Assembly (NCBI GenBank): GCA_028355015.1
Contig: JAOMRN010000005.1
Location: forward strand, 18,022-82,021
Direction: 5' to 3'
From: Methanobacteriota archaeon
Lineage (GTDB): Archaea; Thermoplasmatota; Poseidoniia; Poseidoniales; Thalassarchaeaceae
Length of the DNA stretch: 64,000 bases
Part shown: positions 38,801 through 63,409 of the stretch, piece by piece
How positions within the stretch are numbered: position 1 is the first letter of the stretch
Layout: every line of letters begins with the position of its first letter
Program-made: the position numbers and the translations under genes
The notes under the pieces: model-generated
The model's input: only the letters and a program-made list of their open reading frames with translations
The model's database searches: none
Told to the model about the DNA's origin: nothing

Positions 38801-38878
38801 GGTAGCCTCTGAAAGGGCGGACTGCAAACCCATTAATTCAGAGGATGCTAACTCTTGGATCTATGCAAAAACCAATTG
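38801..38878 (+). repeat. Arm repeat, hybrid GG-TA-arm site (TA 38803-04)
   Basis: GGTAGCCTCTGAAAGGGCGGACTGCAAACCCATTAATTCAG...CTAACTCTTGGATCTATGCAAAAACC. Confidence 0.9.
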
Positions 38879-38970
38879 TTAAGACTGTTAATCGATTATA
38901 CTATGATTGATTATATAATGATGACGTAGCAAGACCACAATATGAAATAACAATCCCTTTTGGTAAAATT

Positions 38971-39717
38971 ATGGAAGGAGAGTTCGATGCTAGAAATTTC
39001 AACACTTTCGCGGCTTCTCGAAGATCCACTCGAGACTTTCTTCCAACTCCAGTTCCAGAGGGGTTAATCGAGGAAATTATCGCTGCCGGCCTGACTTCAC
39101 CGAGTTGGAGTAACACTCGTCCGTTCGTGGTAGCAGTAGCAGAAGGTGAGGTCAGAGATCGTTTATCTGCTGAATTTCTAAGTCGATTTGAGTTTGTCAA
39201 AACGGGACAAGGGGAGGGGTTTTTTGGAAAAATTAAGGCTCTAATTCGTAGGAAAGGGATACCCACGAGCAATTGGTTAGTTCTCAAAAAATATCACAAG
39301 GATTTACTGCCAAGATCCCAAAGAGTTGGTAAGGAATTATTCACTCAAATGGGAATTGATAGGGATGACAAAGATGCTAGGGATGGATTCTGGGCGAGGA
39401 ATTACGAATTCTTCGGCGCACCCGTGGAGTTGTTTTTGTTTACTCACAAAAGTCTGGGAAAGTTCGCAGCTTCTGATGCCGGGCTTTTTATGCAGAATCT
39501 AATGCTTTCAGCGCATTCGAAAGGATTGGGGACTTGCGCCCAAGGTTCCGTCGCAGTTTGGGAAGATGCGGTTCGAAAGGAGTTTGAAATTAGCAAAAAT
39601 TACTCCCTTCTTTGTGGGATATGTGTCGGATATCCAAGTCAGAGCGAAGTAAACAAATTTGAAGCGAACAGGATATCCCCCTTGGAGATAATGCTTCCAG
39701 AGAAGAATGAATCCTAA
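38971..39717 (+). CDS. Nitroreductase family protein
   Basis: SRRSTRDF, SPSWSNTRP, FFGAP, LMLSAHSKGLGTC.QG. Confidence 0.88.
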   Translation: MEGEFDARNFNTFAASRRSTRDFLPTPVPEGLIEEIIAAGLTSPSWSNTRPFVVAVAEGEVRDRLSAEFLSRFEFVKTGQGEGFFGKIKALIRRKGIPTSNWLVLKKYHKDLLPRSQRVGKELFTQMGIDRDDKDARDGFWARNYEFFGAPVELFLFTHKSLGKFAASDAGLFMQNLMLSAHSKGLGTCAQGSVAVWEDAVRKEFEISKNYSLLCGICVGYPSQSEVNKFEANRISPLEIMLPEKNES

Positions 39718-39730
39718 TCGGTACCCTTTG
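39716..39730. repeat. Short GG-TA-CC palindromic site
   Basis: aatcGGTACCCTTTG directly after the nitroreductase stop. Confidence 0.55.
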
Positions 39731-39769
39731 TTACGTATGTATCATAGAGGGTAGACCTTTACGACAAAC

Positions 39770-40255
39770 ATGCCTTTCGATGATTTTCAGAAACATTGTA
39801 AAAAATGTAAAAAGGGAAAACCATGTAAACAATACCATATTTACGTACTAACAGTAGATCCTAGATTGAAGGTAGGAAAAAGAAAGAAGAAAGTTCGATT
39901 TAGAGAAATTAATCCTGATACTCACCAAGACGGTAAGCCAGTATATGTAGGGAAATGTGAATGTACTCCGAGATGTAGACAGAGTAAGCATAGAAACCAC
40001 AATCCGCATAAAAAGACCAAGTGGAATTGTTACTGTGGAAAATATGAGCCTACTAATATCTATAAGAAGTTCAGAGATGACCCTACATCAATACATGACT
40101 TTCTTAAGGGAGGTTATGGTTATCTCCAACCCAAATTATTCAAACATCTGAACCCATTTAATACTTCAGAGGAAGCAATTAAGGCCGAAGGAAAATTAGC
40201 TACTCAACTTAGAAAAGAGGGATATGCAGTATGGGCAGGACATCATGATGATTGA
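39770..40255 (+). CDS. Cys-rich GIY-YIG-like protein
   Basis: HIYVL...PVYVG...R...H...A..AE..LA..LR..GY pattern of minimal GIY-YIG nucleases. Confidence 0.5.
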   Translation: MPFDDFQKHCKKCKKGKPCKQYHIYVLTVDPRLKVGKRKKKVRFREINPDTHQDGKPVYVGKCECTPRCRQSKHRNHNPHKKTKWNCYCGKYEPTNIYKKFRDDPTSIHDFLKGGYGYLQPKLFKHLNPFNTSEEAIKAEGKLATQLRKEGYAVWAGHHDD

Positions 40256-40525
40256 ATATCATCATCTTCGCTAGGGATTGTAACGCCCCTATCATTAAGG
40301 CTAACGCCCTCTATGAAATTTCATGCTCCGTCCCTTCTTCTTCGTTGAATGGTTAGAGATGTGTTGTCTCTGGGTTGTGATTATCTTGGTCTCATCCTAC
40401 ATTATCAAGAATCTATTTTTTGATGAAAATATGGATTGATCAAGAAATTATCCTTGCGTACACTAGGCTATGGAACATGTCGGATACATCATAGAGGGAT
40501 GTATGAAAGGCGAATACCCTTTGCG

Positions 40526-40987
40526 ATGAACATGGATGATGATAAATTGTTAACTTCATCTGAAGATTCGAAATATACATTAGAATATATTTTTGGAATT
40601 TTTTGCCTCTTACTACTACTTCCGACTGCAATATTAGCTTTCGGAGAATATATAGATATTATTGATTACTTCGAATATGGAGGGGATACCACTGATATTA
40701 TTAGTTGGATATTGTATACAGCAACAATTTTTTCTATATTGCTTATCTCTGGTTTAAAATTCACTGGTAATATTAAATCAAATACTGTAAGAGTCGGTTC
40801 TGGAATTTTTATTATTCTGTTATCTATAATTAATCTTATTTCTAGAATCTCAGACTTTGATGAAGAAATGAAAAATATAGGATTCGATGAATCTTGGTTA
40901 GAATTTCTCTATTGGTCAAGCAATCATGAAACATTAGAATTGGTATTTCTCGGTATAATAATAGGATTCTTTATACTCAAAAGATAA
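40526..40987 (+). CDS. Hypothetical membrane protein
   Basis: 4 hydrophobic segments; very AT-rich. Confidence 0.6.
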   Translation: MNMDDDKLLTSSEDSKYTLEYIFGIFCLLLLLPTAILAFGEYIDIIDYFEYGGDTTDIISWILYTATIFSILLISGLKFTGNIKSNTVRVGSGIFIILLSIINLISRISDFDEEMKNIGFDESWLEFLYWSSNHETLELVFLGIIIGFFILKR

Positions 40988-41019
40988 TAATATATTTTTA
41001 CATTCAATCAAAACTTAAC

Positions 41020-41095
41020 GGTAGCCTCTGAAAGGGCGGATAGATAACCGATAAGTTCAGTGAAAATAGCAATGGGCTCGAGCAAAAACCCAATG
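41020..41095 (+). repeat. Arm repeat, hybrid GG-TA-arm site (TA 41022-23)
   Basis: GGTAGCCTCTGAAAGGGCGGATAGATAACCGATAAGTTCAG...CAATGGGCTCGAGCAAAAACCCAATG. Confidence 0.9.
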
Positions 41096-41320
41096 TTTTA
41101 CTCATAAAACTCTTAATCCATACTTAGTTCATATTACTCTACATCGCAGGTAAATGTATGCGTATCATAGCACCAATGATGATTTTGATAATGATGACCT
41201 CAACTTTAATCCGAATTAAAAATGCAAATATCTCGTAAGATACCAATTTTCATATGTAAAATACAAAATATTCTTTGTATATAGATAAATTTATATCAAA
41301 ATTTACATCCCACTACAAAC

Positions 41321-41740: not shown

Positions 41741-41745
41741 TCATT

Positions 41746-42868: not shown

Positions 42869-43639
42869 TTGATGAGCAGTGAAGAGACCTCTTCTACAAA
42901 GATTAATCAGCGTCATGAATACAGAGTGAAATTAGATCTAATGCTTGCCTTTGGGGAGGAAAAAACCCTTGCTAAGTTTCAGGCTTCAACCGTTGCCAAA
43001 ATTATTCAGGGAGAGCTGAAAGAGGTTGCAAGTAGAGCTAATCATTCACTACATGAACTACTAATGATAGTTAGAGGGGACTCAAATGGTAGCGAAGGAT
43101 TTCATGGAAAAAGTAGGGCGGCATTAGTAGTTCAGGCTCTAGCAAGTCATTGCGGCATTGAATTTGATGTTGTGAACTCGCTAATAGTGATCACTCTGGA
43201 TGAGGACGATGACTTGTTCTGTATAGAACCAGTAAAGGGAAAGAATCTGCTTTCCAACATAGTAATCGGTGTAATGTATCAAAGTAAACTTTTGGACGAG
43301 GATGTATATAATATCCTGATAGATGACTTGGACAGCGTGTCATTGGAAATAAGAATTGGCGATTTTATTATCAATCATATCAAAGAAAATACTGACCACA
43401 TGACTGCGACAGAGCGACTCGCTAGAATCGAAAAATATTCATGTAGTTTTGCGGATTCACAACTTCCACCAGAGGTCAAACTGGCTGAAGTAATTCGTAT
43501 AGATACTAGTGATTCAAGTTTGAAGTGGCGAGACGTCTCTGACCATAATAAATGTGGTTGGGTTGAACATAAAGCAGTAAGAAAGGTATCCACTAATCGA
43601 AAATCAGAAATAGAAAACGATTCAGAGGCGAGCCTTTAA
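42869..43639 (+). CDS. Hypothetical protein
   Basis: 256-aa ORF, no recognised motif. Confidence 0.55.
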   Translation: MMSSEETSSTKINQRHEYRVKLDLMLAFGEEKTLAKFQASTVAKIIQGELKEVASRANHSLHELLMIVRGDSNGSEGFHGKSRAALVVQALASHCGIEFDVVNSLIVITLDEDDDLFCIEPVKGKNLLSNIVIGVMYQSKLLDEDVYNILIDDLDSVSLEIRIGDFIINHIKENTDHMTATERLARIEKYSCSFADSQLPPEVKLAEVIRIDTSDSSLKWRDVSDHNKCGWVEHKAVRKVSTNRKSEIENDSEASL

Positions 43640-43647
43640 TCAGGACT

Positions 43648-43667
43648 CAATGGGTACCCCCTGCGAC
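43648..43667. repeat. Short GGG-TA-CCC palindromic site
   Basis: CAATGGGTACCCCCTGCGAC, between the hypothetical gene and hsdM. Confidence 0.6.
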
Positions 43668-43759
43668 TAGCACATATCAACTCTTTCTTTTGATTTTGAA
43701 CCGAATCCAATAATCTGTAGCCATAGCCGTTATGTGTGCGAGGGGGTTAGGCTAGAATC

Positions 43760-45205
43760 ATGGCTGTCGACCCTTTCAAGCGGATCGATGATGAGTTACG
43801 AAAAGATGCTGGCTGTGGAGGGGAAATTGATTATGCTGAGCAAACTTCATGGCTACTCTTCTTGAAATATCTCGACTCAATGGAAAATAGGAGAAAATTA
43901 GCTGCGGAACTTCAAGGGAAATCGTATTCGTACATCATCGATAATGAGTATAAATGGGATACTTGGGCTGCTCCAAAAAAGGATGGTGAAATAGACTACA
44001 ATGTTCGGATGATTGGTGAGGATTTACTTGAGTTTGTCAATCTCAAATTGTATCCTTACCTTGCCGAATTCAAGCAAAGAGCGCCAAGTTCTGATACAAT
44101 TGAATATAAAATTGGTGAAATCTTTGGGGAGTTGAAAAATAAAATTCAGTATGGAAAAACCTTAGCCAATGTTATCGATATTATCGATCAGTTTAGTTTT
44201 GGTTCAAATGCCGACAAGCATGAAATGTCCCAACTTTATGAAGAGAAAATCAAGCGCATGGGTAATGCAGGCAGAAATGGAGGAGAATATTACACTCCAC
44301 GGCCTCTTATTCGTGCAATGATTGAAATTGCAAAACCGAAGATTGGAGATACCATCTATGATGGCGCGGTTGGTTCTGCTGGTTTCTTGTGTGAGGCTCA
44401 CGAATACCTCAAATCTCAATCCAATTTATCAACCAGCGATTTAGAAACACTTCAGAAAAAGACATTCTATGGAAAGGAGAAGAAAGGCCTCGCATACGTT
44501 ATTGGCATCATGAATATGATTCTTCATGGGATTGACGCACCTAATATCATCCATACAAATACACTTGGTGAGAATGTCATGGATATTCAAGAAAAAGATC
44601 GTCACAACGTTGTACTCGCAAATCCTCCATTTGGCGGTGGTGAACGAAAAGAAATCCAACAAAACTTCCCTATTCGTACAGGCGAAACTGCTTATTTATT
44701 CTTGCAACATTTCATGAAGATACTCAAAGTAGGCGGTACAGCTGCAATTGTTATCAAGAACACCTTCTTGTCAAATGATGATGCCTCAGAACTAAGGAAA
44801 GATTTGCTTTCATCGTGTAATCTGCATACGATTCTTGATTGTCCTGCGGGAACATTTCAAGGAGCAGGTGTGAAGACCGTTATTTTGTTTTTCAACAAAG
44901 GTACACCAACACGTAAGATTTGGTATTACCAACTCAAACCAGGGCGTAATCTGGGTAAGACCAATCCATTGAATGACAAAGATTTGGCAGAATTCATCGA
45001 ATTTCAGAAGGGTTTTGCAGATTCTGATAATTCATGGACAATTGACATTGATGATGTAGATACGAGCAACTACGACCTCTCTACCAAGAATCCAAATGTA
45101 GATCATGAAGTAGTTCTACGTAGTCCAACGGAGATTCTTGATGAGATTGAGAAATTGGACGATGAGTCGCGAGAAATTCTCAAGAAAATAAGGGAGTTAT
45201 TGTGA
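43760..45205 (+). CDS. hsdM: Type I R-M N6-adenine methyltransferase
   Basis: GEYYTPR, YDGAVGSAGFL, ANPPF. Confidence 0.95.
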   Translation: MAVDPFKRIDDELRKDAGCGGEIDYAEQTSWLLFLKYLDSMENRRKLAAELQGKSYSYIIDNEYKWDTWAAPKKDGEIDYNVRMIGEDLLEFVNLKLYPYLAEFKQRAPSSDTIEYKIGEIFGELKNKIQYGKTLANVIDIIDQFSFGSNADKHEMSQLYEEKIKRMGNAGRNGGEYYTPRPLIRAMIEIAKPKIGDTIYDGAVGSAGFLCEAHEYLKSQSNLSTSDLETLQKKTFYGKEKKGLAYVIGIMNMILHGIDAPNIIHTNTLGENVMDIQEKDRHNVVLANPPFGGGERKEIQQNFPIRTGETAYLFLQHFMKILKVGGTAAIVIKNTFLSNDDASELRKDLLSSCNLHTILDCPAGTFQGAGVKTVILFFNKGTPTRKIWYYQLKPGRNLGKTNPLNDKDLAEFIEFQKGFADSDNSWTIDIDDVDTSNYDLSTKNPNVDHEVVLRSPTEILDEIEKLDDESREILKKIRELL

Positions 45206-46380: not shown

Positions 46381-48689
46381 CAAGCGGAATGAACGAATCC
46401 GAAACGTGTGACACATACATCACACCAGCAGTTCAAGACTCAGGGTGGAAACCAAGCAATCGTTGTATCATTCGTCGTGAGTTCTCAATCACAGCAGGGC
46501 GGATACAGGGCCCAGGGCAGAGAGGAAGTCCGTTGCGGGCTGATTATGTACTTGTTCATCGATATAAGAAACTGGCAATTATTGAGGCAAAGAAATGGGA
46601 TCTCTCGCTGACTGAAGGTGTTCAACAAGCCAAGGATTACGCACAAAGGATGCATGTTCGATTCACCTACGCATCAAACGGGCAAGGTTTCTGGGAAATC
46701 GATATGCTCACAGGTGAAGAGAAGGAATTGGCAATTTCAGAATTTCCAACCCCTGAAGAGTTGTGGGAAAGAACGTACGAAAGTGATGACGAATGGCGAG
46801 ACAAATTCTCTGAAGTTCCATTTGAAGACAGGGGTGGCACATGGACTCCAAGGTATTACCAAGACAATGCAGTTGAAGCCGCATTGAAAGCCATTGGCGA
46901 TGGCAGTGACCGAATTTTACTGACACTTGCTACGGGAACAGGAAAGACATCTATCGCATTCCAAATCGCTTGGAAGTTGTTCCAGACGAGATGGAATCGT
47001 AGTGATGGAATTTCTCGACGTCCTCGAATCCTTTTCCTTGCAGATAGAAACATCTTGGCGAATCAAGCCTACAACTCGTTTTCTGCCTTTGGCGAACATG
47101 CGATGGAGCGAATTACCCCTGCTGGTATTCGAAAGAAGGGGCGAGTTCCAAAGAATGCTAACATCTTCTTCACTATCTTCCAGACTTTCATGAGTGGGCC
47201 TGATGATACTGCTTTCTTTGGAGAATATCCAGAGGATTTCTTTGACATGGTTATCGTGGATGAGTGCCACCGAGGAGGGGCAAATGATGAGAGTACTTGG
47301 AGGGAGATTCTGGAATACTTCTCACCTGCCGTTCAACTGGGTTTGACAGCAACTCCCAAGCGTGACGACAACGTTGACACATACGCCTACTTCGGTGAAC
47401 CAGTTTACACATATTCCCTCAAGGATGGGATAAGTGATGGATTCTTGACCCCATTTAGAGTCCGCAAGATTTCGACGACTAGCGATTCATACGTGTATTC
47501 TTCTGATGATAATGTCCTTCAAGGCGAGGTAGAAGAAGGAAAAGAATACACTGAGAAGGATTTTGCTCGTGGTGTAATTGAGATTCCAGCACGAATGAAA
47601 TACCGTGTTGAGAGGTTCATGGAATTCATCGATCAATCTGAGAAGACAATCATTTTCTGTCCTTTAGAAAGACATGCAGCAGCTGTTCGTGACCTCATAA
47701 ACCAGTTGAAGAAAAGTACCGATCCGAACTATTGTGTTAGAGTCACATCAGGCGATGGTGAGTTGGGTGAAAAATACCTACGGGAATTCCAAGACAATGA
47801 GCGTTCAATTCCAACAATCCTCACCACCTCGAGAAAACTCTCAACTGGAGTTGATGCCAGAAATGTTCGCCATATCGTATTACTGAGGACAATCAAATCA
47901 ATGATTGAATTTAAGCAAATCATTGGACGAGGCACTCGTTTGTATGATGAAAAGTACTACTTTACAATACATGATTTCGTCAATGCTTCTGAAAAATTCC
48001 AAGATCCAGAATGGGATGGGGAGCCAGTCGAGCCAGAACCAACAGAACCACGTGAACCTCGTCCATCTCAGCCTAGGCCAGAAAGACCACCAAGACCTGA
48101 AGTCATCAGAATCAAGTTGTCTGATGGCAAGGAACGCTCAATACAACACATGGAGCAAACTCTATTCTATGGCCCTGATGGGAAACCAATGTCATCTTCT
48201 GAATTTATTCAGAGTATATTCGGTGTAACTCCTACTCTGTTCAAGGATGAAGAACATCTTAGAGAAATATGGAGTGACCCTGAAACTCGCAAAAAACTCA
48301 TGCGACAACTCTCCGAATCTGGGTTTACTAAGGAGCATATAGAGCAAGCGAAGAAGTTGATCTCAGCAGAACATAGTGATGTGTATGACGTTCTTTCATA
48401 CATCGCATATGCAACTCCAGTATCTACCCGTGAAGAAAGAGCATTAATGGCGGCAGACATGCTTATCGATGAATTTGAAGAAGATGAGAAACTGTTCCTC
48501 AAATTCGTATTAGGAGAATATGTCGATCATGGTGTTGAAGAATTGGATGTAGGAAAGCTCCCCGAGTTACTTCAACTCAAATATGGCGGTATGAACGAGG
48601 CCTTGAGCGTCTTTGGTGCTCCTGCAAAAATTAACGAAATGTTCGTTGGATTCCAGCGTCTGCTTTACACAAAGTCACAAACGGCCTAA
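46377..48689 (+). CDS. hsdR: Type I R-M restriction subunit (EcoAI/type IB-like)
   Basis: ADYVL...IEAK nuclease, PRYYQ, ATGTGKT, DECHR, GLTATP, QIIGRGTR. Confidence 0.95.
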   Translation: MTSGMNESETCDTYITPAVQDSGWKPSNRCIIRREFSITAGRIQGPGQRGSPLRADYVLVHRYKKLAIIEAKKWDLSLTEGVQQAKDYAQRMHVRFTYASNGQGFWEIDMLTGEEKELAISEFPTPEELWERTYESDDEWRDKFSEVPFEDRGGTWTPRYYQDNAVEAALKAIGDGSDRILLTLATGTGKTSIAFQIAWKLFQTRWNRSDGISRRPRILFLADRNILANQAYNSFSAFGEHAMERITPAGIRKKGRVPKNANIFFTIFQTFMSGPDDTAFFGEYPEDFFDMVIVDECHRGGANDESTWREILEYFSPAVQLGLTATPKRDDNVDTYAYFGEPVYTYSLKDGISDGFLTPFRVRKISTTSDSYVYSSDDNVLQGEVEEGKEYTEKDFARGVIEIPARMKYRVERFMEFIDQSEKTIIFCPLERHAAAVRDLINQLKKSTDPNYCVRVTSGDGELGEKYLREFQDNERSIPTILTTSRKLSTGVDARNVRHIVLLRTIKSMIEFKQIIGRGTRLYDEKYYFTIHDFVNASEKFQDPEWDGEPVEPEPTEPREPRPSQPRPERPPRPEVIRIKLSDGKERSIQHMEQTLFYGPDGKPMSSSEFIQSIFGVTPTLFKDEEHLREIWSDPETRKKLMRQLSESGFTKEHIEQAKKLISAEHSDVYDVLSYIAYATPVSTREERALMAADMLIDEFEEDEKLFLKFVLGEYVDHGVEELDVGKLPELLQLKYGGMNEALSVFGAPAKINEMFVGFQRLLYTKSQTA

Positions 48690-48946
48690 TTTTTCTGAAA
48701 AGAAACGGCATCATGCCATTTGCTATTACCCCAATCTGATGGCTTCTCAAATAACTCACGTTGTGCATGAAACTCATACCGCATGGTCCTCAAGACCATG
48801 CTTGCTTTCCAAGTGCCTCCTCTTTTGCCTGTCATTCCTTTCTCATTGAGATGCTTGGCTACCCTTGTTTATGCCCTCACAACAGAGGCCTATCATTACA
48901 AAAACTCTCTAACAACATCTTTATTTTATAATGTTCAGGATAACTC

Positions 48947-51361: not shown

Positions 51362-51420
51362 TGAAACTGCTAACGTAGATATTATCGATCTAAGTACGGA
51401 TTAAGAGTTTTATGACTAAA

Positions 51421-51499
51421 TCAATGGGTTTCTGCTTAGACCCATGAGTTAGCATTTACTGAATTAATGGGTTTGCAGTCCATCCTTTCATAGGCTACC
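51421..51499 (-). repeat. Arm repeat, hybrid GG-TA-arm site (TA 51496-97)
   Basis: rc GGTAGCCTATGAAAGGATGGACTGCAAACCCATTAATTCAGTAAATGCTAACTCATGGGTCTAAGCAGAAACCCATTG. Confidence 0.9.
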
Positions 51500-52093: not shown

Positions 52094-52157
52094 GGTAGGC
52101 ACTGAAAGCGCTGACTGCCAACGCATTAATTCAGTAATTTCTAACTCTTGGGCCTAA
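52094..52157 (+). repeat. Arm repeat, hybrid GG-TA-arm site (TA 52096-97)
   Basis: GGTAGGCACTGAAAGCGCTGACTGCCAACGCATTAATTCAGTAATTTCTAACTCTTGGGCCTAA. Confidence 0.85.
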
Positions 52158-52903: not shown

Positions 52904-52917
52904 CAAAGGGTACCCTC
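52904..52917. repeat. Short GGG-TA-CCC palindromic site
   Basis: CAAAGGGTACCCTC; a degenerate minus-strand arm (rc GTAGCCTCATGTAGGG) has its TA at 52855-56. Confidence 0.6.
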
Positions 52918-55636: not shown

Positions 55637-55748
55637 GCAAGGGTTCTTGGAACTCCCTTAAGACATTATGTAAGAGTACAATGGGTGTTCAGTCCCCCAG
55701 TACACTCGCTAGGCATTGAAAGGACGGATAGATAGCCGATAAGTTCAG
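55637..55748. repeat. Double-arm site: two arms back-to-back around CTAG (TA 55710-11)
   Basis: + arm GCTAGGCATTGAAAGGACGGATAGATAGCCGATAAGTTCAG; - arm rc CTAGCGAGTGTACTGGGGGACTGAACACCCATTG...TAAGGG...AACCCTTG, colinear with the consensus. Confidence 0.8.
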
Positions 55749-56281
55749 TCTGAGTATTTGATACCGGTTCCATAAGCGAACACCTCAACTCCTTTAACTC
55801 CCTTTTTGCTACTTTGTGGGGTCATATCCGCTGTATCTATTCTAACATTAATCACATCATCCCAACCAGCAGCTATTGCATTCTCTCTGAGCCTCTGCAT
55901 TACCTCTGCCCTACCGGTAGAAATAACTTTCTGAAATATCGTGATTGAGCCACCAAATAAATTATTGAACCAACCAATTAGGAGATGCCAATGGCTGGGT
56001 CCAAAGACACCACTGGCATAAACGAGACCGGAATCAGAAACATTATCTCTGTAGCCACCATCAATTGTTGATAGAGGATCTTTCCCTCGTAATTTTCTTG
56101 TTTCACTCTCTCTTCTGTTTACATCTTCTACCATATTGTCAATATTCTTTCCACTAGTAATCATACCCCAAACAAAAACAAATGGGTATGAAAGACCAAA
56201 AACTGTCCAAATTAATGAAAATATTAGGAATGGGGCCACCAATATAAACAGAATGTAATATATCTCGAACTCTATAGCCAT
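55745..56281 (-). CDS. YbjQ/UPF0145-like protein with N-terminal TM
   Basis: NLFGG, GRAEVMQRL, INVRIDT, VEVFAYGTGI. Confidence 0.75.
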   Translation of the reverse strand: MAIEFEIYYILFILVAPFLIFSLIWTVFGLSYPFVFVWGMITSGKNIDNMVEDVNRRESETRKLRGKDPLSTIDGGYRDNVSDSGLVYASGVFGPSHWHLLIGWFNNLFGGSITIFQKVISTGRAEVMQRLRENAIAAGWDDVINVRIDTADMTPQSSKKGVKGVEVFAYGTGIKYSD

Positions 56282-56294
56282 TGAAAGACCTCTT

Positions 56295-56630: not shown

Positions 56631-56674
56631 AATGGTGCGTACAATAGGAATCACTTCAATATAGTGTACTATGT

Positions 56675-57307: not shown

Positions 57308-57405
57308 ATAATAATCGCCAATATGCCTTCATATGAACCTAGTCACGAATTAATGTTTACAACCCCATCAGACCACATATGAGCGTGAGGGGACCCTTTG
57401 TCTGG

Positions 57406-57870
57406 TTATTCCCTAACGTATAGCTTGTAATCTCGAATATGTTTCAGTTGGTGTAGAATTCGTTTAAATTCCAATGAAAATATCATCCAAGAGACCATGC
57501 TCAATCTACTGATTAGTACGTTTAACGAACTCAAAAATCCCGGAGTTATCGATCTTTCAAAACCCGCCTTTTCTAGTACAGATTGAAGTCGAGCGTCTCG
57601 TGTATATGCGAAAAGACGTCCATTGCCACATTTTTCTAACAATTTATGTGATATTCCTTTACCTCTGTGAGTTGGGTCAACTACCAGGCTATTGATTTCA
57701 AATCCTCTCCACCTATTTGTCTTGATTGCATGAGCAATCGGATTGTCATCACCGTCATAGATAATTATGGTTTTTTTGTTAATTCTTGCTAGAGACGGAG
57801 GCCTTAGATCCAACTCTTGACGGAACATTTCCTTCAACCAAATAATGGCATCCATTCTAACCCCTACCAC
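57406..57870 (-). CDS. GNAT acetyltransferase
   Basis: EINSLVVDPTHRGKGI motif A. Confidence 0.75.
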   Translation of the reverse strand: MVGVRMDAIIWLKEMFRQELDLRPPSLARINKKTIIIYDGDDNPIAHAIKTNRWRGFEINSLVVDPTHRGKGISHKLLEKCGNGRLFAYTRDARLQSVLEKAGFERSITPGFLSSLNVLISRLSMVSWMIFSLEFKRILHQLKHIRDYKLYVRE

Positions 57871-58015
57871 TAATCCGTCAGCTACCCCCCTTCATCATGT
57901 ATGCGGAAGTTTGGACCCCATGTATACGGGCATCAAACCCCCCCTACCCAATTAGACGTATAAATCTACTATGGGTGCCCCAATCATTTTTCACGTATCG
58001 GAAATTCGGTATGGC

Positions 58016-58600
58016 ATGAGGGAGTCCCATACAACACTGGCAAAGGTATTCCACTGGGGTTTCATAATCCTCTATGCATATGGGATATTCAAGCAAGTGG
58101 ATGATATATCTCAGCTAGAGGATTCAGGTTTACTCGCCTTCGAGGTGGCCTTTGCAAGTATTTTCCTAGTCATTGTAATGGTTCGATATTATTACATGAG
58201 GAAATTTCAGACGTTTCTTGGCGCTGACAAACCCGTCCCAGTGACCCATAGATATCTCGCGAAATCGATTCATACCTCCATGTATCTTTGCCTGATTCTT
58301 CTCCCACTATCTGGCTTGTTGATAGCAGTTTTGTTCTCACAAGGAATCTCTGAGGGTCCGATGCAGGACTTCGCGCTTGCTGTGCATGAGTTCTCAGCCG
58401 ATCTCAGTTATATCCTCATAGCAATACATGTCGGGGCGGCAATGTGGTCACGAATCAAGGGAGAAGGAGTTTGGACTTCCATGGTCCCAATTTGGAAGGA
58501 AGGGGGAGCCTCAAGAAATGAAACAATTTCAAGATTGTCGCTTATGGAAAATGATTTTTTCAATAAGATAGAGAAAATTTTCTTTTCTTCGAAGGAATAA
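58016..58600 (+). CDS. Cytochrome b561 / Ni-hydrogenase b-type cytochrome family
   Basis: AKVFHW, IHTSMY..L...PLSG, VHE, IHVGAA heme His ligands. Confidence 0.8.
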   Translation: MRESHTTLAKVFHWGFIILYAYGIFKQVDDISQLEDSGLLAFEVAFASIFLVIVMVRYYYMRKFQTFLGADKPVPVTHRYLAKSIHTSMYLCLILLPLSGLLIAVLFSQGISEGPMQDFALAVHEFSADLSYILIAIHVGAAMWSRIKGEGVWTSMVPIWKEGGASRNETISRLSLMENDFFNKIEKIFFSSKE

Positions 58601-58635
58601 GCACTGGCCGATCATAAGCCCAAGGTTGTTTGTAA

Positions 58636-58712
58636 CAAAGGGGGCCCCTTACGATTACGAGTGGTCGCATGGGTACCCATGCGACACCCGTCGTTTCAAA
58701 AGGGGACCATTC
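58636..58712. repeat. Three tandem short GGG-NN-CC(C) sites at 30-31 bp spacing; central one a perfect 22-bp palindrome
   Basis: CAAAGGGGGCCCCTT, GTCGCATGGGTACCCATGCGAC (58664-58685), CAAAAGGGGACCATT. Confidence 0.65.
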
Positions 58713-58717
58713 GAAAG

Positions 58718-58936
58718 TCACTCTTTCTTCATATCATAAAGAAGCCGTATCGCCACAATTAGAATTGCACAAAGAATACCGATTTGGCCACCATATACCC
58801 CTGCGATTTCATAATTGTCAGTAATCCCACTTTGCGGAAACCATTCTGATAATGGCTGGGCAAGGAGCGCCCCTACAATCAGGCCTATCGGCGGAAGCAA
58901 AATCAACACAAGCGGGATGAAGTATCTGCTCCTCAA
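58718..58936 (-). CDS. Small 2-TM membrane protein
   Basis: TTG start overlapping the upstream TGA; MRSRYFIPLVLILL... Confidence 0.5.
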   Translation of the reverse strand: MRSRYFIPLVLILLPPIGLIVGALLAQPLSEWFPQSGITDNYEIAGVYGGQIGILCAILIVAIRLLYDMKKE

Positions 58937-59154
58937 AATGATCCCTCCGGACTTGAATTTTTCAATCCCAAACCTACTATTAATCCGATCAATCCAATTC
59001 CACATACTGCTTGAGATGCCAACATATAGAGTAGATTTATCGATTCGTAAGTTCCAATTTTATCAAGTTCATTCGAAAAATAGAACATGGATATCAGCCC
59101 CACAATCATTGTGATGAATGAAATAATGATAATCACTAATTTCCTGTTCTCCAT
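58933..59154 (-). CDS. Small 2-TM membrane protein
   Basis: MENRKLVIIIISF... hydrophobic ORF. Confidence 0.5.
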   Translation of the reverse strand: MENRKLVIIIISFITMIVGLISMFYFSNELDKIGTYESINLLYMLASQAVCGIGLIGLIVGLGLKNSSPEGSF

Positions 59155-59203
59155 GATTAATCGAGATGAATACGATATATCAACAAACCGATTCGGATAA
59201 GTT

Positions 59204-59281
59204 GCAAGGGTCTATCCGAATACCCATTGAAACGGAAACTGAATTACAAAGGGCTTTCAATGCGTCCTTCGATAGGCTACC
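59204..59281 (-). repeat. Arm repeat (variant B), hybrid GG-TA-arm site (TA 59278-79)
   Basis: rc GGTAGCCTATCGAAGGACGCATTGAAAGCCCTTTGTAATTCAG...CAATGGGTATTCGGATAGACCCTTGC. Confidence 0.8.
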
Positions 59282-59412
59282 CTCGTGTTCAAGTTGAATA
59301 CAAAGGTTCCCCATCATTCATTAGTTGAAATGTAGTCCACTTTTATCACTCGAATCGTTTCCTTAGGGGTTTCAGTAGATCTATTTATGTATGATGGCTA
59401 AATACGCTATTT

Positions 59413-60972
59413 ATGCCATACACACTATCTATGCAACCTCCAGATAATCAATTCAAAGGACTTGCAAAGAATGGGATGGAATGCGGCCATTGCATATGTG
59501 AACTGATAGATAACTCAATTGCCGCGAAGGACTCTGATTTTAAGATTCAAATTCACTTATTAGCTAATCAAGATGAAAAGCTGCTCGATGTTTTCATAAT
59601 GGATGCAAGCGGAGGAATGGATTTTGATACCCTGAAAACTGCATTGCCTCTAGGATCTTCGCCAGGTGATAATCAGCTCAATGAACATGGTTTTGGTTTG
59701 AAAAATGCTTTAGCTACATTGAGTAACAAAAATGTATTGCCGTGGGAATTAATTACCAAGAAAGGTGCAGAAATTTCCAAAGTTAGCGGCCCATTTAGTT
59801 CGAATATGGAAATTTACAGCACTCAGATGGGAGATGCAGTTACGTTGAATGAGGAGGATTGGATGCGTTTCTATAATGAAATCTCAACGATGGTTAAATT
59901 CACTCTTACTAAGAGGTTTTTCAACACACTTAAGGCAAAACATGGCGCACATGCTACAGATCCTTCTACTTTGAGATATTATTTGATTGAAGAGATTGCT
60001 ATGAAATATGCGAATTATTTGACAGGAGATGGCTCCGGATCGATTTCTTTAACCTACCTCACTGATGTGCACGAGATTTTACCATTGATACCTCCAATAG
60101 CAGGAGGACATAAGGATTTGACTTGTATAGTAACAAAGGCGGGAGGAGCTGAGGAGCAGTTACAAATGCGTTATAAATGGGGTGATATTGATCCATTGTT
60201 ACAGAGCGAATGTGTTCAAAGTAAATTAAACGGAGCAATTGAAAAGAAACCTTCGAAAAAATATTTCAAAGCACCCGGAACGATTAATACACAGGGATTT
60301 AGTGTGGTTTTAGGTAGGCGTACAATCATCCCTACTAAATTCAATGATGTTTGGCCCACAGGGGCGACTGATGAAGAAGGTGATCCCGAATACCTCAAAT
60401 CCCACAATAATTATAATCATTATTTAGGTCAGTTGGTTATCAAAACTTTCCCTGAAAAAACACTCACTACTGTGAATAATAAAATTGGGGTTGATCCTGA
60501 TGATACAAATTGGCATAAAGTATTCTCTGCCCTCGGTGCAGATGCAGATACTAAGCCCATAGGGTCCTCAAATGAAGCTTGGAGTGAAAAGCAATACGAA
60601 GACGCCCTCGTCGCTAAAAATCAAGGTGTCCCTGGAATTGAGATGGTTTCTAGACAAGATACAGTGTGGCCCTCAGGAGTAAGAATGGATTGTATTGTAA
60701 AACAAAATAATGGTCATATTACAGTGTATGAATTAAAAGTTAAGAAAGTAGGTACTTTAGATCTCTATCAGTTGAAGATGTATTGGGATGGATTAGTTGA
60801 TCAAGGAGACACACCAACGACAGGGGTTTTAGCAGGTCATGAGTTTATACCTCAAATTGACCAAATGATTACAAAAATAAACAGTATGGAGGACGAACAG
60901 GGCAATAATTACAACATTGAAAAGAAGTTCCTTTCAACTCCTCCAGCAGAAGGCGGTTTAGGATTAAATTAG
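59413..60972 (+). CDS. GHKL (MORC/HATPase_c_3-like) ATPase fused to a C-terminal PD-(D/E)xK nuclease
   Basis: ELIDNSIAA, D.SGGM, NEHGFGLKNA; C-terminal E...RMD...VYELK...YQLKMY. Confidence 0.75.
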   Translation: MPYTLSMQPPDNQFKGLAKNGMECGHCICELIDNSIAAKDSDFKIQIHLLANQDEKLLDVFIMDASGGMDFDTLKTALPLGSSPGDNQLNEHGFGLKNALATLSNKNVLPWELITKKGAEISKVSGPFSSNMEIYSTQMGDAVTLNEEDWMRFYNEISTMVKFTLTKRFFNTLKAKHGAHATDPSTLRYYLIEEIAMKYANYLTGDGSGSISLTYLTDVHEILPLIPPIAGGHKDLTCIVTKAGGAEEQLQMRYKWGDIDPLLQSECVQSKLNGAIEKKPSKKYFKAPGTINTQGFSVVLGRRTIIPTKFNDVWPTGATDEEGDPEYLKSHNNYNHYLGQLVIKTFPEKTLTTVNNKIGVDPDDTNWHKVFSALGADADTKPIGSSNEAWSEKQYEDALVAKNQGVPGIEMVSRQDTVWPSGVRMDCIVKQNNGHITVYELKVKKVGTLDLYQLKMYWDGLVDQGDTPTTGVLAGHEFIPQIDQMITKINSMEDEQGNNYNIEKKFLSTPPAEGGLGLN

Positions 60973-60994
60973 TGTATCTTTTCTACTCAACGTG

Positions 60995-61212
60995 TCAGCT
61001 CAGACCCATTAGTCAGTTAGTAGTGTATTAATGGGTAGCGATAAATTAGAGGGTTTCTGCTTAGGCCCATGAGTTAGCAATTGCTGAATTAATGGGTTAG
61101 CAGCCCGCCCTTTCAGAGGCTAGCGTTTGCACCGACCGACTGAAAGCCCTTCGGAAATCAAAACTCATTCCAATGGGTATTCGGATAAATCCTTACGAAA
61201 TATCTCAACTCG
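60995..61212. repeat. Double-arm site around CTAG (TA 61121-22) plus a partial extra arm
   Basis: - arm rc GCTAGCCTCTGAAAGGGCGGGCTGCTAACCCATTAATTCAG...CATGGGCCTAAGCAGAAACCC; + arm GCTAGCGTTTGCACCGACCGACTGAAAGCCCTT...CAATGGGTATTCGGATAAATCC; extra CCCATT...AATGGG unit 60995-61039. Confidence 0.85.
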
Positions 61213-61213
61213 T

Positions 61214-61462
61214 TTATTCGTTAGTTGAGATATTCTTCTTTCTTTTACGATTCCATTTCTTGATTCGAGGAAGTTGCCATTTGATAATTCCAGTCCAAAA
61301 AACGATTCCTAAGACCGCAGTTGCAACAAAATTGGTCACTCCTGGCTGATCGTTCCAATATCCTGTGTCGCCACTGAATGTTATCGCACCGAAATAAAAC
61401 GAAATACAAAATCCAAAGCCGAGATGAACCCCACGAAGAATAGTGTTCCAATTCCTTGCCAA
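61214..61462 (-). CDS. Small 2-TM protein with basic tail
   Basis: TTG start 2 nt after the upstream small gene; R..HL..G, FWTG..KWQ.PRI. Confidence 0.6.
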   Translation of the reverse strand: MARNWNTILRGVHLGFGFCISFYFGAITFSGDTGYWNDQPGVTNFVATAVLGIVFWTGIIKWQLPRIKKWNRKRKKNISTNE

Positions 61463-61464
61463 GT

Positions 61465-61584
61465 TTATTCCTCTTTTACACTCTCTTGATGTTCTTTCAA
61501 TTTAGTTTCAAATTCTTCTTGGGATAAACCATGCCAACCTATACACATTCCTGTTGGTGATCTACCGCATCCGCATTTACTCAT
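61465..61584 (-). CDS. Unannotated 39-aa CDGSH-like 3Cys-1His peptide
   Basis: AGGAG SD; MSKCGCGRSPTGMCIGWHGLSQEEFETKLKEHQESVKEE. Confidence 0.65.
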   Translation of the reverse strand: MSKCGCGRSPTGMCIGWHGLSQEEFETKLKEHQESVKEE

Positions 61585-61673
61585 AATATTCAGCTCCTAG
61601 TAAACATCGCACTTGACTTGAGTATTAAGGAGGAGAAGTCTCAATCTTGGCACTACAGTATCATGAGTGATAC

Positions 61674-62042
61674 TTGCAAGTTGATATACAGAGACTACTT
61701 AGTGACATTATGCAACCAGTAACTGAAGTGAAGCCAATATGCCTTCAATCCGCAGTAAAAAACACCATTGAAATGCTTGGGAAATCTCACGTGTTAGAGA
61801 TTCTCTATTTTCTGTCCAGGAGAGAAGGCCCAGTAAGATTCAATGAACTCAAGCGTGAGTTGTCGATTACTGCAACGACCCTGAGTCGAAGGTTGGACGA
61901 GTTTATTGAATTCGAACTTGTCACAAGAGAAGTTTTTGCTGAAGTTCCAGCACGTGTCGAGTATACATGTTCTATGAAAGGGAAAACACTTCGACCCGTT
62001 CTTCGGGATCTGTTTGAATGGGCTGAAAGTAATAATTCCTAG
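61674..62042 (+). CDS. HxlR-family winged-helix regulator
   Basis: VRFNELK...TATTLSRRL...LVTR.VFAEVPARVEY; start probably ATG 61709. Confidence 0.85.
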   Translation: MQVDIQRLLSDIMQPVTEVKPICLQSAVKNTIEMLGKSHVLEILYFLSRREGPVRFNELKRELSITATTLSRRLDEFIEFELVTREVFAEVPARVEYTCSMKGKTLRPVLRDLFEWAESNNS

Positions 62043-62054
62043 GGTGATTCAGAA

Positions 62055-62312
62055 TTGAAAGTAATATCAAAATTCAAAGTGACCAAAGGTTACGGAGTAT
62101 GGAAAAAAGAATTCGAGTCAAACGAGGCCATGAGGCTAAAAGATAACGTTAGAGTCTTAGCTTATGGTCATGACAACGAAAGTAACGTATACACGGTTGT
62201 CGAAATGAATTCAATTGAGGATAAGCGATTAAATGACCCCAGTATGATTAAATTTAGAGAAAAGGCGGGGGTTGATCACGCCTCGTTGGAAATCATAGCA
62301 TTGATTGAATAA
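62055..62312 (+). CDS. Small hypothetical alpha/beta protein
   Basis: F.VTKGY..WK..F...R...; REKAGV. Confidence 0.55.
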   Translation: MKVISKFKVTKGYGVWKKEFESNEAMRLKDNVRVLAYGHDNESNVYTVVEMNSIEDKRLNDPSMIKFREKAGVDHASLEIIALIE

Positions 62313-62431
62313 TGTTATTGATTAAATCTAAGCAGTCGGTACCCCTTATCACAGAGTTAGATGATAGATTGTCGCATCATTATGGGCAATGCCGCCCAAT
62401 CATTTATTTTCACATTGGTAGCACACATCAC

Positions 62432-63325
62432 ATGAGCAATCAACATGTATCAAATACTGGAGTTTCGGTTATTGGATTAGGAGCCATGGGTTCTGGCATC
62501 GCTCGCACCCTCATCGAAGGAGGCTGCACGGTATCCGTCTGGAATCGAAGCCGTGACAAGGTCGATGCCCTGGTCGCGAGGGGAGCAATCGGCTGCAATG
62601 AACCCAGCGATGCACTGAATGCTAATACTCATGTGATTGTGTGTGTGTCTGACTACGCAGTATGGCAGCGCATAATCCAAGAGAACGGTCTAGCAAGCCA
62701 CTTCGAAGATACCTGCATCATTCAGATGACGACGGGTACAATCGATGATGTGCAGACCCATGCCTCACTAATCCATGACAACGGTGGTCGTCTTATTGAG
62801 GGAGCCGTCATGTGCTACCCCCGTAACCTCGGAACGGAAGATGCAGCACTCCTATTGTCCGGTTCACCCGATGTGCTGGACGAGTGTGCTCCAATCTTGA
62901 GTGCTCTGGATGCAAATTGGACTAGTCTGGGAGAAGATATCAACCAGCCCTCGATTCTGAGTCGGTCATTGATGTCAGGGCTCACAGGGGCCTTGATGGG
63001 TCTGGTCAACGGTGCAGCTATTTGCCGGGCCGGGGGGGTTCCTCTGGACGTATTCATGAAATTCAACGAAGGTACTAATACCATCCTTCTCGCTGAGCAG
63101 AGGCGCCTTATAGAGGCGATTCGCGATGGATGCACCAAGGAGAACGAGGCCTCAATCAAGGCCTGGCGAGAGGGAAACCAGGCACTGAACTCTGTTGCAG
63201 CCTCGTTGGGAACTGACCTCACGCTGCAGAATGCAATCCAAGCGGTATTCCATGAAGGGGGGGAAAGAGGGCTCGACGAGCACGATCTCTCGGCCTTGGT
63301 TGATGTGTTTGATCCCGGCCATTAA
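62432..63325 (+). CDS. NAD(P)-dependent oxidoreductase (beta-hydroxyacid DH / imine-reductase-like)
   Basis: VSVIGLGAMGS, VWNRSR, VCVSDY; visibly GC-richer than flanks. Confidence 0.8.
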   Translation: MSNQHVSNTGVSVIGLGAMGSGIARTLIEGGCTVSVWNRSRDKVDALVARGAIGCNEPSDALNANTHVIVCVSDYAVWQRIIQENGLASHFEDTCIIQMTTGTIDDVQTHASLIHDNGGRLIEGAVMCYPRNLGTEDAALLLSGSPDVLDECAPILSALDANWTSLGEDINQPSILSRSLMSGLTGALMGLVNGAAICRAGGVPLDVFMKFNEGTNTILLAEQRRLIEAIRDGCTKENEASIKAWREGNQALNSVAASLGTDLTLQNAIQAVFHEGGERGLDEHDLSALVDVFDPGH

Positions 63326-63340
63326 CGGCTTCACAGCGTA

Positions 63341-63409
63341 TATGGGTTAGCAGTCAACCCTTTCAGAGGCTAGTCTTTGATATGGCCCACTGATAACTCA
63401 TTAATTCAG
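63341..63409. repeat. Double-arm site around CTAG (TA 63371-72)
   Basis: - arm rc CTAGCCTCTGAAAGGGTTGACTGCTAACCCAT; + arm GCTAGTCTTTGATATGGCCCACTGATAACTCATTAATTCAG (gap-free alignment to the 41-nt consensus). Confidence 0.85.

Follow-up and report, generated by a model that had tools for sequence, protein, structure and literature searches.

A row of small TA-joined mobile cassettes houses many accessory genes of a marine archaeon, with a small serine recombinase as its probable mover

Many accessory genes of a marine archaeon of the Poseidoniales (Thalassarchaeaceae) are housed in a row of small mobile cassettes, for which a small serine recombinase is the candidate and probable mover. The window, i.e. 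the whole stretch of DNA analyzed, comprises 64,000 nt of contig JAOMRN010000005.1 (GCA_028355015.1, positions 18,022-82,021 of the forward strand) and belongs to a 1.5 Mb genome, termed G000 below. We favor, with moderate confidence, the reading that the repeated arms found there are terminal recombination sites of small mobile gene cassettes of Poseidoniales (0.6-5 kb, 1-4 genes), with a minimal serine recombinase as the proposed enzyme.

Between 38.8 and 63.4 kb, thirteen TA junctions delimit cassettes that range from 30 bp to 5.2 kb in length and from 0.35 to 0.50 in GC content (Table 1). The cassettes form contiguous arrays within flexible genome islands; each is bounded by TA, one TA is common to neighboring cassettes, and an arm read outward, belonging to one of two classes, stands on each side of it. 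The main class is 35 nt long, starts with TAGCCTCTGAAAGG, and can be extended by a 43-nt module between two AACCCATT repeats and by a tail of roughly 35 nt that occurs in two types (tails A and B). The second, looser class starts with TACCC and in about a third of the cases shows a G-run at a distance of 21-36 nt (15 of 46 TAC-type flanks vs 48 of 1482 control sites); its profile gave a single match (E 0.95), the class being too loose for profile detection.

The 32-nt arm core occurs three times in the window with up to three mismatches, compared with none in 100 shuffles. A five-copy seed yields ten nhmmer matches in the window, and two further divergent short arms oppose the heads at 55710 and 61121, so the originally reported number of at least 11 copies holds. 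The reported TA positions (38803, 41022, 51496, 52096, 55710, 59278, 61121 and 63371) are exact, and a repeat search recovers the arm at the earlier coordinates as direct families D5, D6 and D10 and inverted pairs I1-I10. In the whole G000 genome, the arm of ~85-120 nt has 30 nhmmer matches at E <= 0.1, all of which fall in four accessory stretches (C15:56.8-83.3 kb, C4, C7 and C1:35.7-37.1 kb). The proposed profile scan across the order finds the arm in 46 of 61 genomes, G000 included. Positions 1-38.7 kb had been described as free of arms; nhmmer indeed finds no main-type arm there, but the right end of the subtilase unit (gene 36723-38774) is arm-like and runs inward from the TA at 38774.

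Among 58 non-redundant arms drawn from G000 and related genomes, 57 heads begin with TA. Their outward partner flanks are TACC (27), TAGC (12), TACG (4), TAGG (4), TAGT (3) and other (8), the third base being G or C in 54 of 58. The reported GG outside a lone arm is present in five of five cases in the window, the shared cTAg in three of three (55710, 61121, 63371), and the distinction of three forms (arm-TA-arm, GG-TA-CC and hybrids of the two) fits as a description. The arms taken as lone are not so, the flank across the TA being the looser class that starts with TACC; likewise, the supposedly arm-less GG-TA-CC palindromes (GGGTACCC at 43655, 52911 and 58674) are two TACC-type arms head to head. 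What had been read as a bare attB-like site joins arms of a second class that moves along with the cassettes, as seen at 58674, which has in common with a copy at C4:10952 the right-hand cassette and exactly 41 nt of the left (opposite) arm. Genome-wide, the arm-bearing 4.4 % of the sequence holds 7 of 11 GGGTACCC and 15 of 32 GGSTASCC sites, and plain GGTACC is not enriched (152 observed vs about 192 in shuffles); given that GG-TA-CC sites lack enrichment outside the islands, there is no sign of an empty chromosomal attB pool.

Table 1. Coordinates of cassette units, arms and junctions in the window
Feature	Position	Strand	Remarks
Subtilase (S8) gene unit, shuffled or inverted cassette	36723..38775	-	Pfam Peptidase_S8
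Mini-unit of ~27 bp between two TAs	38774..38804		TACC-type arm from either side
Long main-type arm with tail A	38803..38919	+	Head TA 38803; upstream of nitroreductase gene
Long main-type arm, second subtype, with tail B	41022..41208	+	Partner flank TACCGTT
GGGTACCC junction, two TACC-type ends	43616..43695		TA at 43655; left boundary of type I restriction-modification cassette (hsdM/S/R by Pfam)
Degraded serine recombinase remnant	48680..48871	-	Directly after hsdR; residues about 219-281
TA junction GGC-TA-CCC cutting the recombinase remnant	48860..48861		Rare/common cassette boundary in metagenomes
Long main-type arm with tail B	51385..51497	-	TA 51496-51497; partner TACC-type end reading right from 51496
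Main-type arm	52096..52157	+	TA 52096
GGGTACCC junction	52911..52912		X1 contig piece begins at 52911
Head-to-head short main-type arms sharing TA	55675..55749		TA 55710-55711
Palindromic junction, two TACC-type arms of roughly 40 nt	58634..58710		TA 58674
Short main-type arm (-) facing TACC-type arm	59240..59315		TA 59278; nhmmer E 0.1
Partial arm copy 60992-61036 (-), long main-type arm 61038-61122 (-) and facing short divergent arm	60992..61160		TA 61121 common to the long and the divergent arm
Head-to-head short main-type arms sharing TA	63338..63410		TA 63371; X3 contigs exit window at 63371

The cassettes are mobile: species differ, and populations vary internally, by inversion, permutation, gain and loss of cassettes, and for at least one cassette there has been recent movement inside a genome as well as across families. 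G059, a member of another family with a GC content of about 0.52, contains two copies of a 0.9 kb cassette of 33 % GC that are 100 % identical from TA to TA; the G059 arm is 95 % identical to arms of a family other than its own. In agreement with the prediction of restored empty sites, the corresponding locus of a relative, G076, is empty and has a single TA; this is the one clean empty-versus-filled comparison, a second locus having given no clean empty site. In 15 of 17 genomes of the same genus, units of the window are found again on different contigs and with different orientations. Homology of the subtilase unit ends at one common point in six same-genus genomes, with a TA within 0-3 nt, and the unit is inverted relative to its neighbor in G009. 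BLAST matches of the arms at 38803 and 41022 cover 38801-38919 and 41020-41208, respectively, and a 260-nt module to the left of the 52096 arm (51836-52095) ends exactly at that TA in three other contigs.

Within populations, cassette depth varies more than 20-fold within one run. The rare ATPase-gene cassette, whose left boundary is the 59278 junction, has an X1 depth of 4-6 vs about 100 around it, and X3 depth is 11.7 in the bin 52005-52671 vs 105-157 to its right, near 52911. At the 48860 junction, depth jumps in the bin starting at 48670, where an X1 piece ends at 48746 and an X3 piece begins at 48858; other X1 pieces begin at 52911 and 59274. As predicted, sequence identity (G059/G076) and read continuity switch exactly at the TA: reads or contigs turn to a different partner at the 55710/55711 TA and at 63371, with X23 raw reads diverging to other partners in 20 reads at 55710 and 34 at 55711. 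Several read and contig joints lie in repeated arms and are ambiguous, and the joint from 58708 to 61121 has no TA as mapped.

The candidate enzyme is a serine recombinase of 260-310 aa with conserved catalytic motifs that consists of a catalytic and a recombinase domain and has no zinc ribbon or coiled coil. It is most closely related to the N-terminal halves of TP901-1 integrase, CcrB, XisF and TnpX, and it aligns to the first ~250 of 542 positions of the CcrB model. In many Poseidoniales loci the gene lies just downstream of an arm; homologues lie in segments bounded by arms or follow an arm directly in G005, G009, G034, G041 and G052, as well as at five loci of named MAGs (L092, L093, L095, L097 and L099), and in four recombinase loci homology begins exactly at GGG-TA. 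The single Resolvase-domain gene of G000 is intact and lies 4 kb from the C1 arms. The statement that the window has no recombinase needs correction, since a degraded C-terminal piece (E 4e-11, 40 % identity, two stops) is present at 48680-48871. All 14 recombinase-bearing genomes among the 61 have arms, in line with the expected co-occurrence of enzyme and sites (one-sided Fisher 0.011, uncorrected for kinship). Arms also occur where the recombinase is missing, in 32 of 47 such genomes; no Resolvase match came from five genomes that carry 5-13 arms (completeness at least 91 % in four), and G059, the holder of the identical cassette pair, has only a frameshifted copy. At E <= 1e-20 the family comprises 1109 clusters of 261-292 aa, most of which come from contigs of 1-3 kb, as would be expected of a gene flanked by repeats. 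Its neighbors are usually DNA methylase or restriction genes, so the recombinase could be their cargo or serve only its own cassette. The link between arms and recombinase is inferred. The repeat observation as a whole and most of its testable consequences were borne out, and the interpretation is partly supported: the TA boundaries, the empty site and the co-occurring recombinase stand, and the bare attB-like site does not.

Under the proposed mechanism, some cassettes would carry, immediately downstream of an arm, the gene of a minimal serine recombinase (260-310 aa; catalytic domain plus 'recombinase' DNA-binding domain), which would serve the remaining cassettes in trans. The enzyme would bind the inverted half-sites adjoining the TA and cut there with a 2-nt stagger before strand exchange. 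As TA is its own reverse complement, the sites would have no polarity, and one reaction would lead to insertion, excision or inversion alike. Long-arm tails may additionally provide an inward promoter. The dissimilar ends that one cassette can have count against this reading.

Alternatively, the cassettes may be cargo-bearing MITE-like units or mobile insertion cassettes, a kind of non-autonomous transposon that duplicates TA, and the arms would then be terminal inverted repeats served by an unassembled or unrecognized DDE transposase of IS630/Tc1-mariner-like or other type; we consider this unlikely, while giving it real weight. A TA on both sides of the insertion with a single one in the empty site, and TA ends combined with terminal inverted repeats, are a signature of IS630/Tc1-mariner elements too. 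Many cassettes, such as 52096-55710 and 61121-63371, have similar arms facing inward; arms occur in genomes without any serine recombinase, and, with arrays located at the ends of contigs, the bins could lack the enzyme gene. The search for an IS630-type transposase, raised in the original prediction as the alternative, found none: DDE_3 is absent from five of five genomes (the control was positive in two archaea), DDE_Tnp_1, rve and TnpB domains from G000, G059 and G005, and any transposase-like domain from 60 ORFs searched by Pfam (window, C4, C7, C15 end and C1 island). Moreover, all copies lie in contiguous arrays instead of at scattered TA sites, the constraint on the partner flank far exceeds a preference for TA, and a mobile unit may have ends that do not resemble one another.

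It is quite improbable that the arms are cis-regulatory or RNA modules of island genes (promoter or operator blocks, UTRs, small RNA) shuffled by homologous recombination between repeats. Consistent with such a role, 13 of 18 tailed long arms aim at the adjacent gene (ORF maps read by eye), the tails contain an A/T-rich box that is TATA-like by eye, the internal inverted ACCCAT/ATGGGT motifs could bind a dimeric regulator, and HxlR-type regulators are frequent as cargo. The other five long arms, however, run into the 3' end of a convergent gene, Rfam has no match in the region, RNAalifold gives 0 pairs for 49 arms, and pairing in three hand-drawn helices amounts to 82.8 % vs 81.8 % in shuffles, with changes on both sides in only 8 of 658 cells. 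Homologous recombination predicts breakpoints anywhere in the arm, whereas the observed identity and read continuity end at the TA, and it leaves unexplained the insertion into an arm-free site with TA on both sides. A classical integron or attC cluster run by a tyrosine integron integrase can hardly apply, even though the array of promoter-poor accessory cassettes resembles one and integrons are reported from 75 archaeal MAGs of nine phyla (PMC9668308), a paper whose main text has no occurrence of Poseidoniales or Thermoplasmatota. The sole tyrosine recombinase of G000 lies in a core context with no arm nearby and scores best as XerA (184 bits), falling well short of the integron-integrase cut-offs (96 vs 265); the sites have only the 2-bp TA in common, cassettes stand in both orientations, and no R'/R'' core sites are apparent by eye.

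The cassette system shares traits with several known systems. As in Tn4451/Tn4453 (TnpX), Tn5397, Tn6104 and IS607, a 2-bp repeat flanks the unit and is present once in the empty site, as described for Tn6104 and the TnpX element (PMC3158075), and the candidate enzyme is a serine recombinase with TnpX among its PDB matches. Unlike in these transposons, it is half-size, most units lack it, the units are stacked in arrays and the dinucleotide is the palindromic TA; IS607 differs also in domain order (27-38 bits with its model vs a cut-off of 110). With IS630/Tc1-mariner elements and their MITE or mobile-insertion-cassette derivatives the system shares TA at both ends, terminal inverted repeats, non-autonomous units with passenger genes and, at some junctions, the CTAG context that IS630 prefers; it differs in the missing DDE_3 transposase, in copies that are not dispersed, and in a flank across the TA that is itself a conserved arm. 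DNA invertases (Hin/Gin/Pin and Mpi of Bacteroides) act with one enzyme on many sites made of short inverted half-sites around a central 2-bp crossover, an arrangement also proposed here. Public sources name the recombinase family 'Pin-like DNA invertase', and it matches the Mpi model weakly, but in this system flipping is accompanied by gain, loss and transfer between genomes of entire gene cassettes, the DNA-binding domain is the larger 'recombinase' domain and the conserved arms span 35-120 nt.

The suggested analogy to integrons (IntI, attI, attC) is visible in small accessory cassettes of mixed origin, most with a single gene, that stand in contiguous arrays with a recombination site at each junction; in both systems arrays break assemblies, and here too one recombinase gene would serve many cassettes in trans. 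In contrast to integrons, the crossover falls on the 2-bp TA between two arms and not on a cut within folded single-stranded attC, cassettes occur in both orientations, no integron integrase is found beside the XerA-like protein, no fixed platform with attI and a common promoter is seen, and some arms seem to carry their own promoter. Overall, the TA-joined cassette system of these marine archaea has the appearance of a counterpart to the bacterial integron that has so far gone undescribed.

The repeated arm, taken here as the terminal repeat read outward from its TA, is genuine and lies where the original prediction had placed it: a repeat search over the window recovers it in the direct families D5, D6 and D10 and in the inverted pairs I1-I10. 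With up to three mismatches its 32-nt core occurs three times in the window and not once in 100 shuffles. A profile built from five window copies was scanned over the whole genome (G000; 1.5 Mb in 19 contigs, 84 % complete), in which the window is C15:18022-82021. All 30 matches at E <= 0.1 fall in four stretches, so that the arm is confined to ~4 % of the genome, unlike an ordinary MITE, which is dispersed; seven weaker matches (E >= 1) are scattered over the genome. The aligned copies comprise a 35-nt head starting at the TA, an optional 43-nt module that follows the head between two AACCCATT direct repeats, and a tail of ~35 nt that comes in two types. One arm copy in G059, a genome of another family, lacks exactly the 43-nt module, and the presence or absence of this module explains the 'short' and 'long' arms.

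The TA stands at the start of 57 of the 58 non-redundant heads collected from G000 and related genomes, and the sequence across it from the head is not random. Read outward, the partner flanks of the 58 heads begin with TACC (27), TAGC (12), TACG (4), TAGG (4), TAGT (3) or other sequences (8). The TAG partners are further main-class arms placed head to head, and the TAC partners form a second, looser arm class, in which a G-run is found 21-36 nt out in 15 of 46 cases vs 48 of the 1482 other TACCC sites of the genome. Two loci of G000 have one cassette in common together with exactly 41 nt of arm beyond the TA. The TACC-type class is heterogeneous, since its profile finds nothing beyond a single match at E 0.95. 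What had been described as 'arm-less' GGTACC sites are actually junctions of two TACC-type arms. Of the 32 GGSTASCC octamers, 15 lie inside the arm-holding accessory islands, against an expectation of ~1.4, and the other 17 in the rest of the genome; their overall number is near the shuffle level (27.6) and thus gives no sign that the core genome keeps a stock of free sites. An origin of the arm as a tRNA fragment or an att site in a tRNA was rejected, as ARAGORN detects no tRNA in the window.

Coordinates of the features in the window and in other contigs and genomes
Feature	Location	Details
TA junctions of the array (13)	window 38774, 38803, 41022, 43655, 48860, 51496, 52096, 52911, 55710, 58674, 59278, 61121, 63371	
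Arm stretches of G000 (arm profile)	C15:56.8-83.3 kb; C4 (16 kb); C7 (7.6 kb); C1:35.7-37.1 kb	the C15 stretch is the right part of the window and the contig end
Resolvase-domain gene	C1:41071-41970	only one in G000; 299 aa, Resolvase and partial Recombinase domains
Recombinase remnant	window 48680-48871	degraded C-terminal piece
GHKL-type ATPase gene	window 59413-60972 (+)	519 aa; weak NucS-like C-terminal match
50-nt inverted repeat (I6)	window 51756-51805 / 62362-62411	90 % complementary, unrelated to arms
Signal recognition particle RNA, archaeal	window 11858-12170 (+)	Rfam RF01857, 121 bits
12-nt periodic repeats	window 21050-22210	families D1-D4; long coding run, rich in His and Asp codons
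Direct repeat of ~105 bp, HxlR-domain gene 3' end	L004 6566-6671 and 14644-14749 (G000:C1 ~34.6, 42.6 kb)	~80 % identical
Unit of ~1.2 kb	G059:C4 ~152.7-154.1 kb (L039 8600-9837); also G063:C3, G078:C2	~130-nt repeated end

The units between the 13 junctions of the window, each of them a potential cassette, range from 30 bp to 5.2 kb, and the GC content of the array is 0.35-0.50 vs 0.37 in the first 36 kb of the window. Their cargo is accessory and includes a nitroreductase, a type I restriction system, a beta-trefoil protein, a short-chain dehydrogenase, HxlR regulators, YbjQ proteins, an acetyltransferase, cytochrome b561, a GHKL-type ATPase, a further dehydrogenase and AIM24. The cargo of the C4 and C7 stretches is of like kind, with no transposase domain found among it. 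Similar inverted arms stand at both ends of the cassettes 52096-55710 and 61121-63371 and are not seen in others, such as the G059 cassette, the ends of which are unlike, TACCC-type on one side and main-type on the other. The region 21-36 kb of the window was considered as a part of the array and set aside: gene-sized blocks are rearranged there between species, but the gaps hold no arms. Elsewhere in the window, the periodic repeats of families D1-D4 probably encode, judging by their codons, a His/Asp-rich acidic protein stretch of metal-binding appearance, and the signal recognition particle RNA confirms the archaeal host.

BLAST recovers the arm from 19 of the 61 compared genomes of the order, G000 included. 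Its presence in other Poseidoniales was borne out by the profile scan, which detects it in 46 of the 61 genomes (family f1, 26 of 36; f3, 19 of 22; f2, 0 of 2). In G059 (GC ~0.52), a 0.9 kb insertion of 33 % GC consists of one gene, a tail and an arm that is 95 % identical to the arm of the window, and a second copy elsewhere in the same genome is 100 % identical, the identity beginning and ending at TA. The empty site with a single TA that was anticipated for such insertions is present in the related genome G076, at the first G059 insertion site (single comparison). At the filled site TA flanks both the cassette and an adjoining 80-nt unit; together with the one TA in the empty site this fits, in this one comparison, a TA duplicated on insertion. 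A second empty site, sought for the G059:C4 copy, was discarded, as relatives differ across the whole intergenic stretch with no clean junction. The ~1.2 kb unit with a repeated end adjoins this second cassette copy and is repeated in tandem in two related genomes. Gene units of the window also recur within the genus, where they stand on different contigs with their order and orientation changed. The peptidase unit loses its homology at a single point in six genomes, a TA being within 0-3 nt, and in three other contigs a 260-nt module stops at the TA of 52096.

Three marine metagenomes from separate studies supplied contigs, and a fourth run supplied raw reads, for alignment to the window at 44001-64000; these runs may include the sample of origin. 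In the metagenome X1, the depth is ~17 over the restriction cassette, 190-330 over the next cassette, and 4-6 over the ATPase cassette, the neighbours of which have ~100; in the metagenome X3, the bin 52.0-52.7 kb has 11.7 vs 105-157 beside it. Raw reads diverge at the TA, 20 of them at 55710 and 34 at 55711, and continue into other partners, one of which begins with TACCC. Metagenome contigs depart from the window at 63371 and contig pieces start at 48858, 52911 and 59274; because repeats interrupt contigs in any case, the divergence of reads at 55710/55711 alone counts as strong. In these data, which are mostly assembled contigs, no junction of a circular intermediate with joined ends was identified. 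Joints inside arms (51450 to 55746-55751, 51450 to 61084, and 64000 to 51425) were examined as rearrangements and are best read as other arm copies. The ATPase gene, possibly a defence gene, is the sole gene of the rarest cassette. Contig pieces also break at ~62341-62373, and the X3 depth falls from ~100 to 13 in the bin starting at 62677, ~300 nt to the right of one copy of the 50-nt inverted repeat, which may mark a breakpoint of a different kind within the 61121-63371 cassette.

The original prediction saw no recombinase in the window, which does contain a degraded piece of one, located directly after the restriction subunit gene hsdR, with the junction at 48860 running through it. The intact gene of G000 adjoins a C-5 methylase 4 kb from the C1 arms; an IS607-like pair was dismissed, as this neighbour is not TnpB. 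On C1, the HxlR-end direct repeat brackets 8 kb with three arms, the C-5 methylase and the intact serine recombinase; this island may be an integrated element and could equally be cassette debris. Homologues of the recombinase are found in 14 of the 61 genomes. In G005 arms enclose a segment in which the gene precedes a type I restriction system, and in G041 it lies between inward-facing arms. A same-orientation arm is found upstream of it in G009, G034, G052 and the named MAG loci L092, L093 and L095, at ~0.1-0.8 kb in four of these six and at 1.5-1.7 kb in G034 and G052; at the locus L099 the arm is ~6 kb away. In a second recombinase clade, homology among four loci starts exactly at GGG-TA. 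The G059 copy is frameshifted; an arm junction precedes it by ~350 nt and a methylase-like gene follows it. In one clade (L092, L094 and L100) the recombinase is followed by a small gene that reads by eye as a GIY-YIG-type nuclease.

Sequence comparison reveals conserved serine-recombinase catalytic motifs and Resolvase and Recombinase domains. The protein aligns to positions 4-249 of the 542-position CcrB model, and also to the catalytic domains of TP901-1 integrase, invertases, resolvases and TnpX. Large serine recombinases of the phage-integrase type have ~450 aa or more with a zinc ribbon and a coiled coil, whereas neither element was found in these proteins of 261-310 aa by profile and structure-sequence matches. 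The family comprises 1109 clusters at E <= 1e-20 among 3142 candidates; its best 120 members have 261-292 aa and come mostly from contigs of 1-3 kb, which fits a gene flanked by repeats.

The anticipated co-occurrence of a recombinase with the sites was observed, arms being present in all 14 recombinase genomes (one-sided Fisher test 0.011, ignoring kinship and completeness). Against the enzyme link we count the arms in 32 of 47 recombinase-free genomes and the lack of any Resolvase match in five arm-rich genomes; since arrays lie at contig ends, absence of a recombinase from a bin is weak evidence. Most cassettes carry no recombinase gene, and because methylase and restriction genes steadily neighbour the recombinase, it could itself be cargo.

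Movement of the arms by a TA-duplicating DDE transposition would account for both the TA and the inverted arms. The stacking of arm copies in arrays and the constraint on the partner flank far beyond the TA speak against it, as does the search for DDE_3 (PF13358) transposases, which gave no match in five genomes while its control matched in five of 14 reference genomes, two of them archaea; Transposase_1 (PF01359) was likewise without a match in five genomes and uninformative, its control being silent too. DDE_Tnp_1, rve and the TnpB domain had no match in G000, G059 or G005. Arm tails may act as promoters. A reading of the arms as regulatory or RNA modules fails, as it cannot yield switches exact to the TA and the tests for structure were negative: a known RNA family was rejected by the Rfam gathering scan of the window, which reports only the signal recognition particle RNA, and a structured RNA was rejected because RNAalifold gives 0 pairs and covariation in hand-drawn helices is no greater than in shuffles.

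A classical integron would also produce arrays of captured cassettes, and this likeness in outcome is where the resemblance lies; as far as tested, it is excluded. The only PF00589 match in G000, on C12, is described best by the NCBIfam model XerA_Arch (184 bits), scores 96 and 68 bits with integron-integrase models that have cut-offs of 265 and 435, and has no arm in the 3.4 kb around its gene. Integron attC sites are imperfect palindromes with R''/L''/L'/R' cores and a crossover in the R' core; no such core motif was seen by eye at the junctions, in which two arms surround a TA. The Tn4451-type serine transposons are alike in their 2-bp logic, as presented in PMC3158075, and the dinucleotide pattern is shared: here TA stands at either end of the unit and singly in the empty site. 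The cassette system is a member of neither group.

A bolder reading, to which we give somewhat less than an even chance, is a true serine-recombinase cassette platform, by which Poseidoniales would capture genes as integrons do with a different chemistry. Among cassette-array platforms it would be the first to rely on a serine recombinase and the first that is native to archaea. Its sites would be ~70 bp long, with two arms placed around a TA that has no polarity, and a minimal serine recombinase would work on them in trans. Every junction would be open to the insertion, excision or inversion of any cassette, and cassettes would pass from one family to another. Our literature searches returned no description of such a system; the lineage is unmentioned in the main text of the archaeal integron paper (PMC9668308), the supplements of which could list Poseidoniales matches.

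A serine recombinase of 260-300 aa, acting at a short site with a palindromic core and without control of direction, would add a new and compact tool to those for recombination, and would also link small invertases to large serine integrases. In the surface ocean, Poseidoniales belong to the most abundant archaea, the Marine Group II archaea are uncultured, and to our knowledge it is not known how their flexible genome is constructed. If cassettes with recognisable ends form a defined system, this would explain why assemblies break in the islands, and anchoring on the arms would let the cassette gene pools be read straight from metagenomes. Finally, it would supply a mechanism for gene exchange between families, on which the 95 % identical arm and the low-GC cassette in the GC-rich genome of another family bear.
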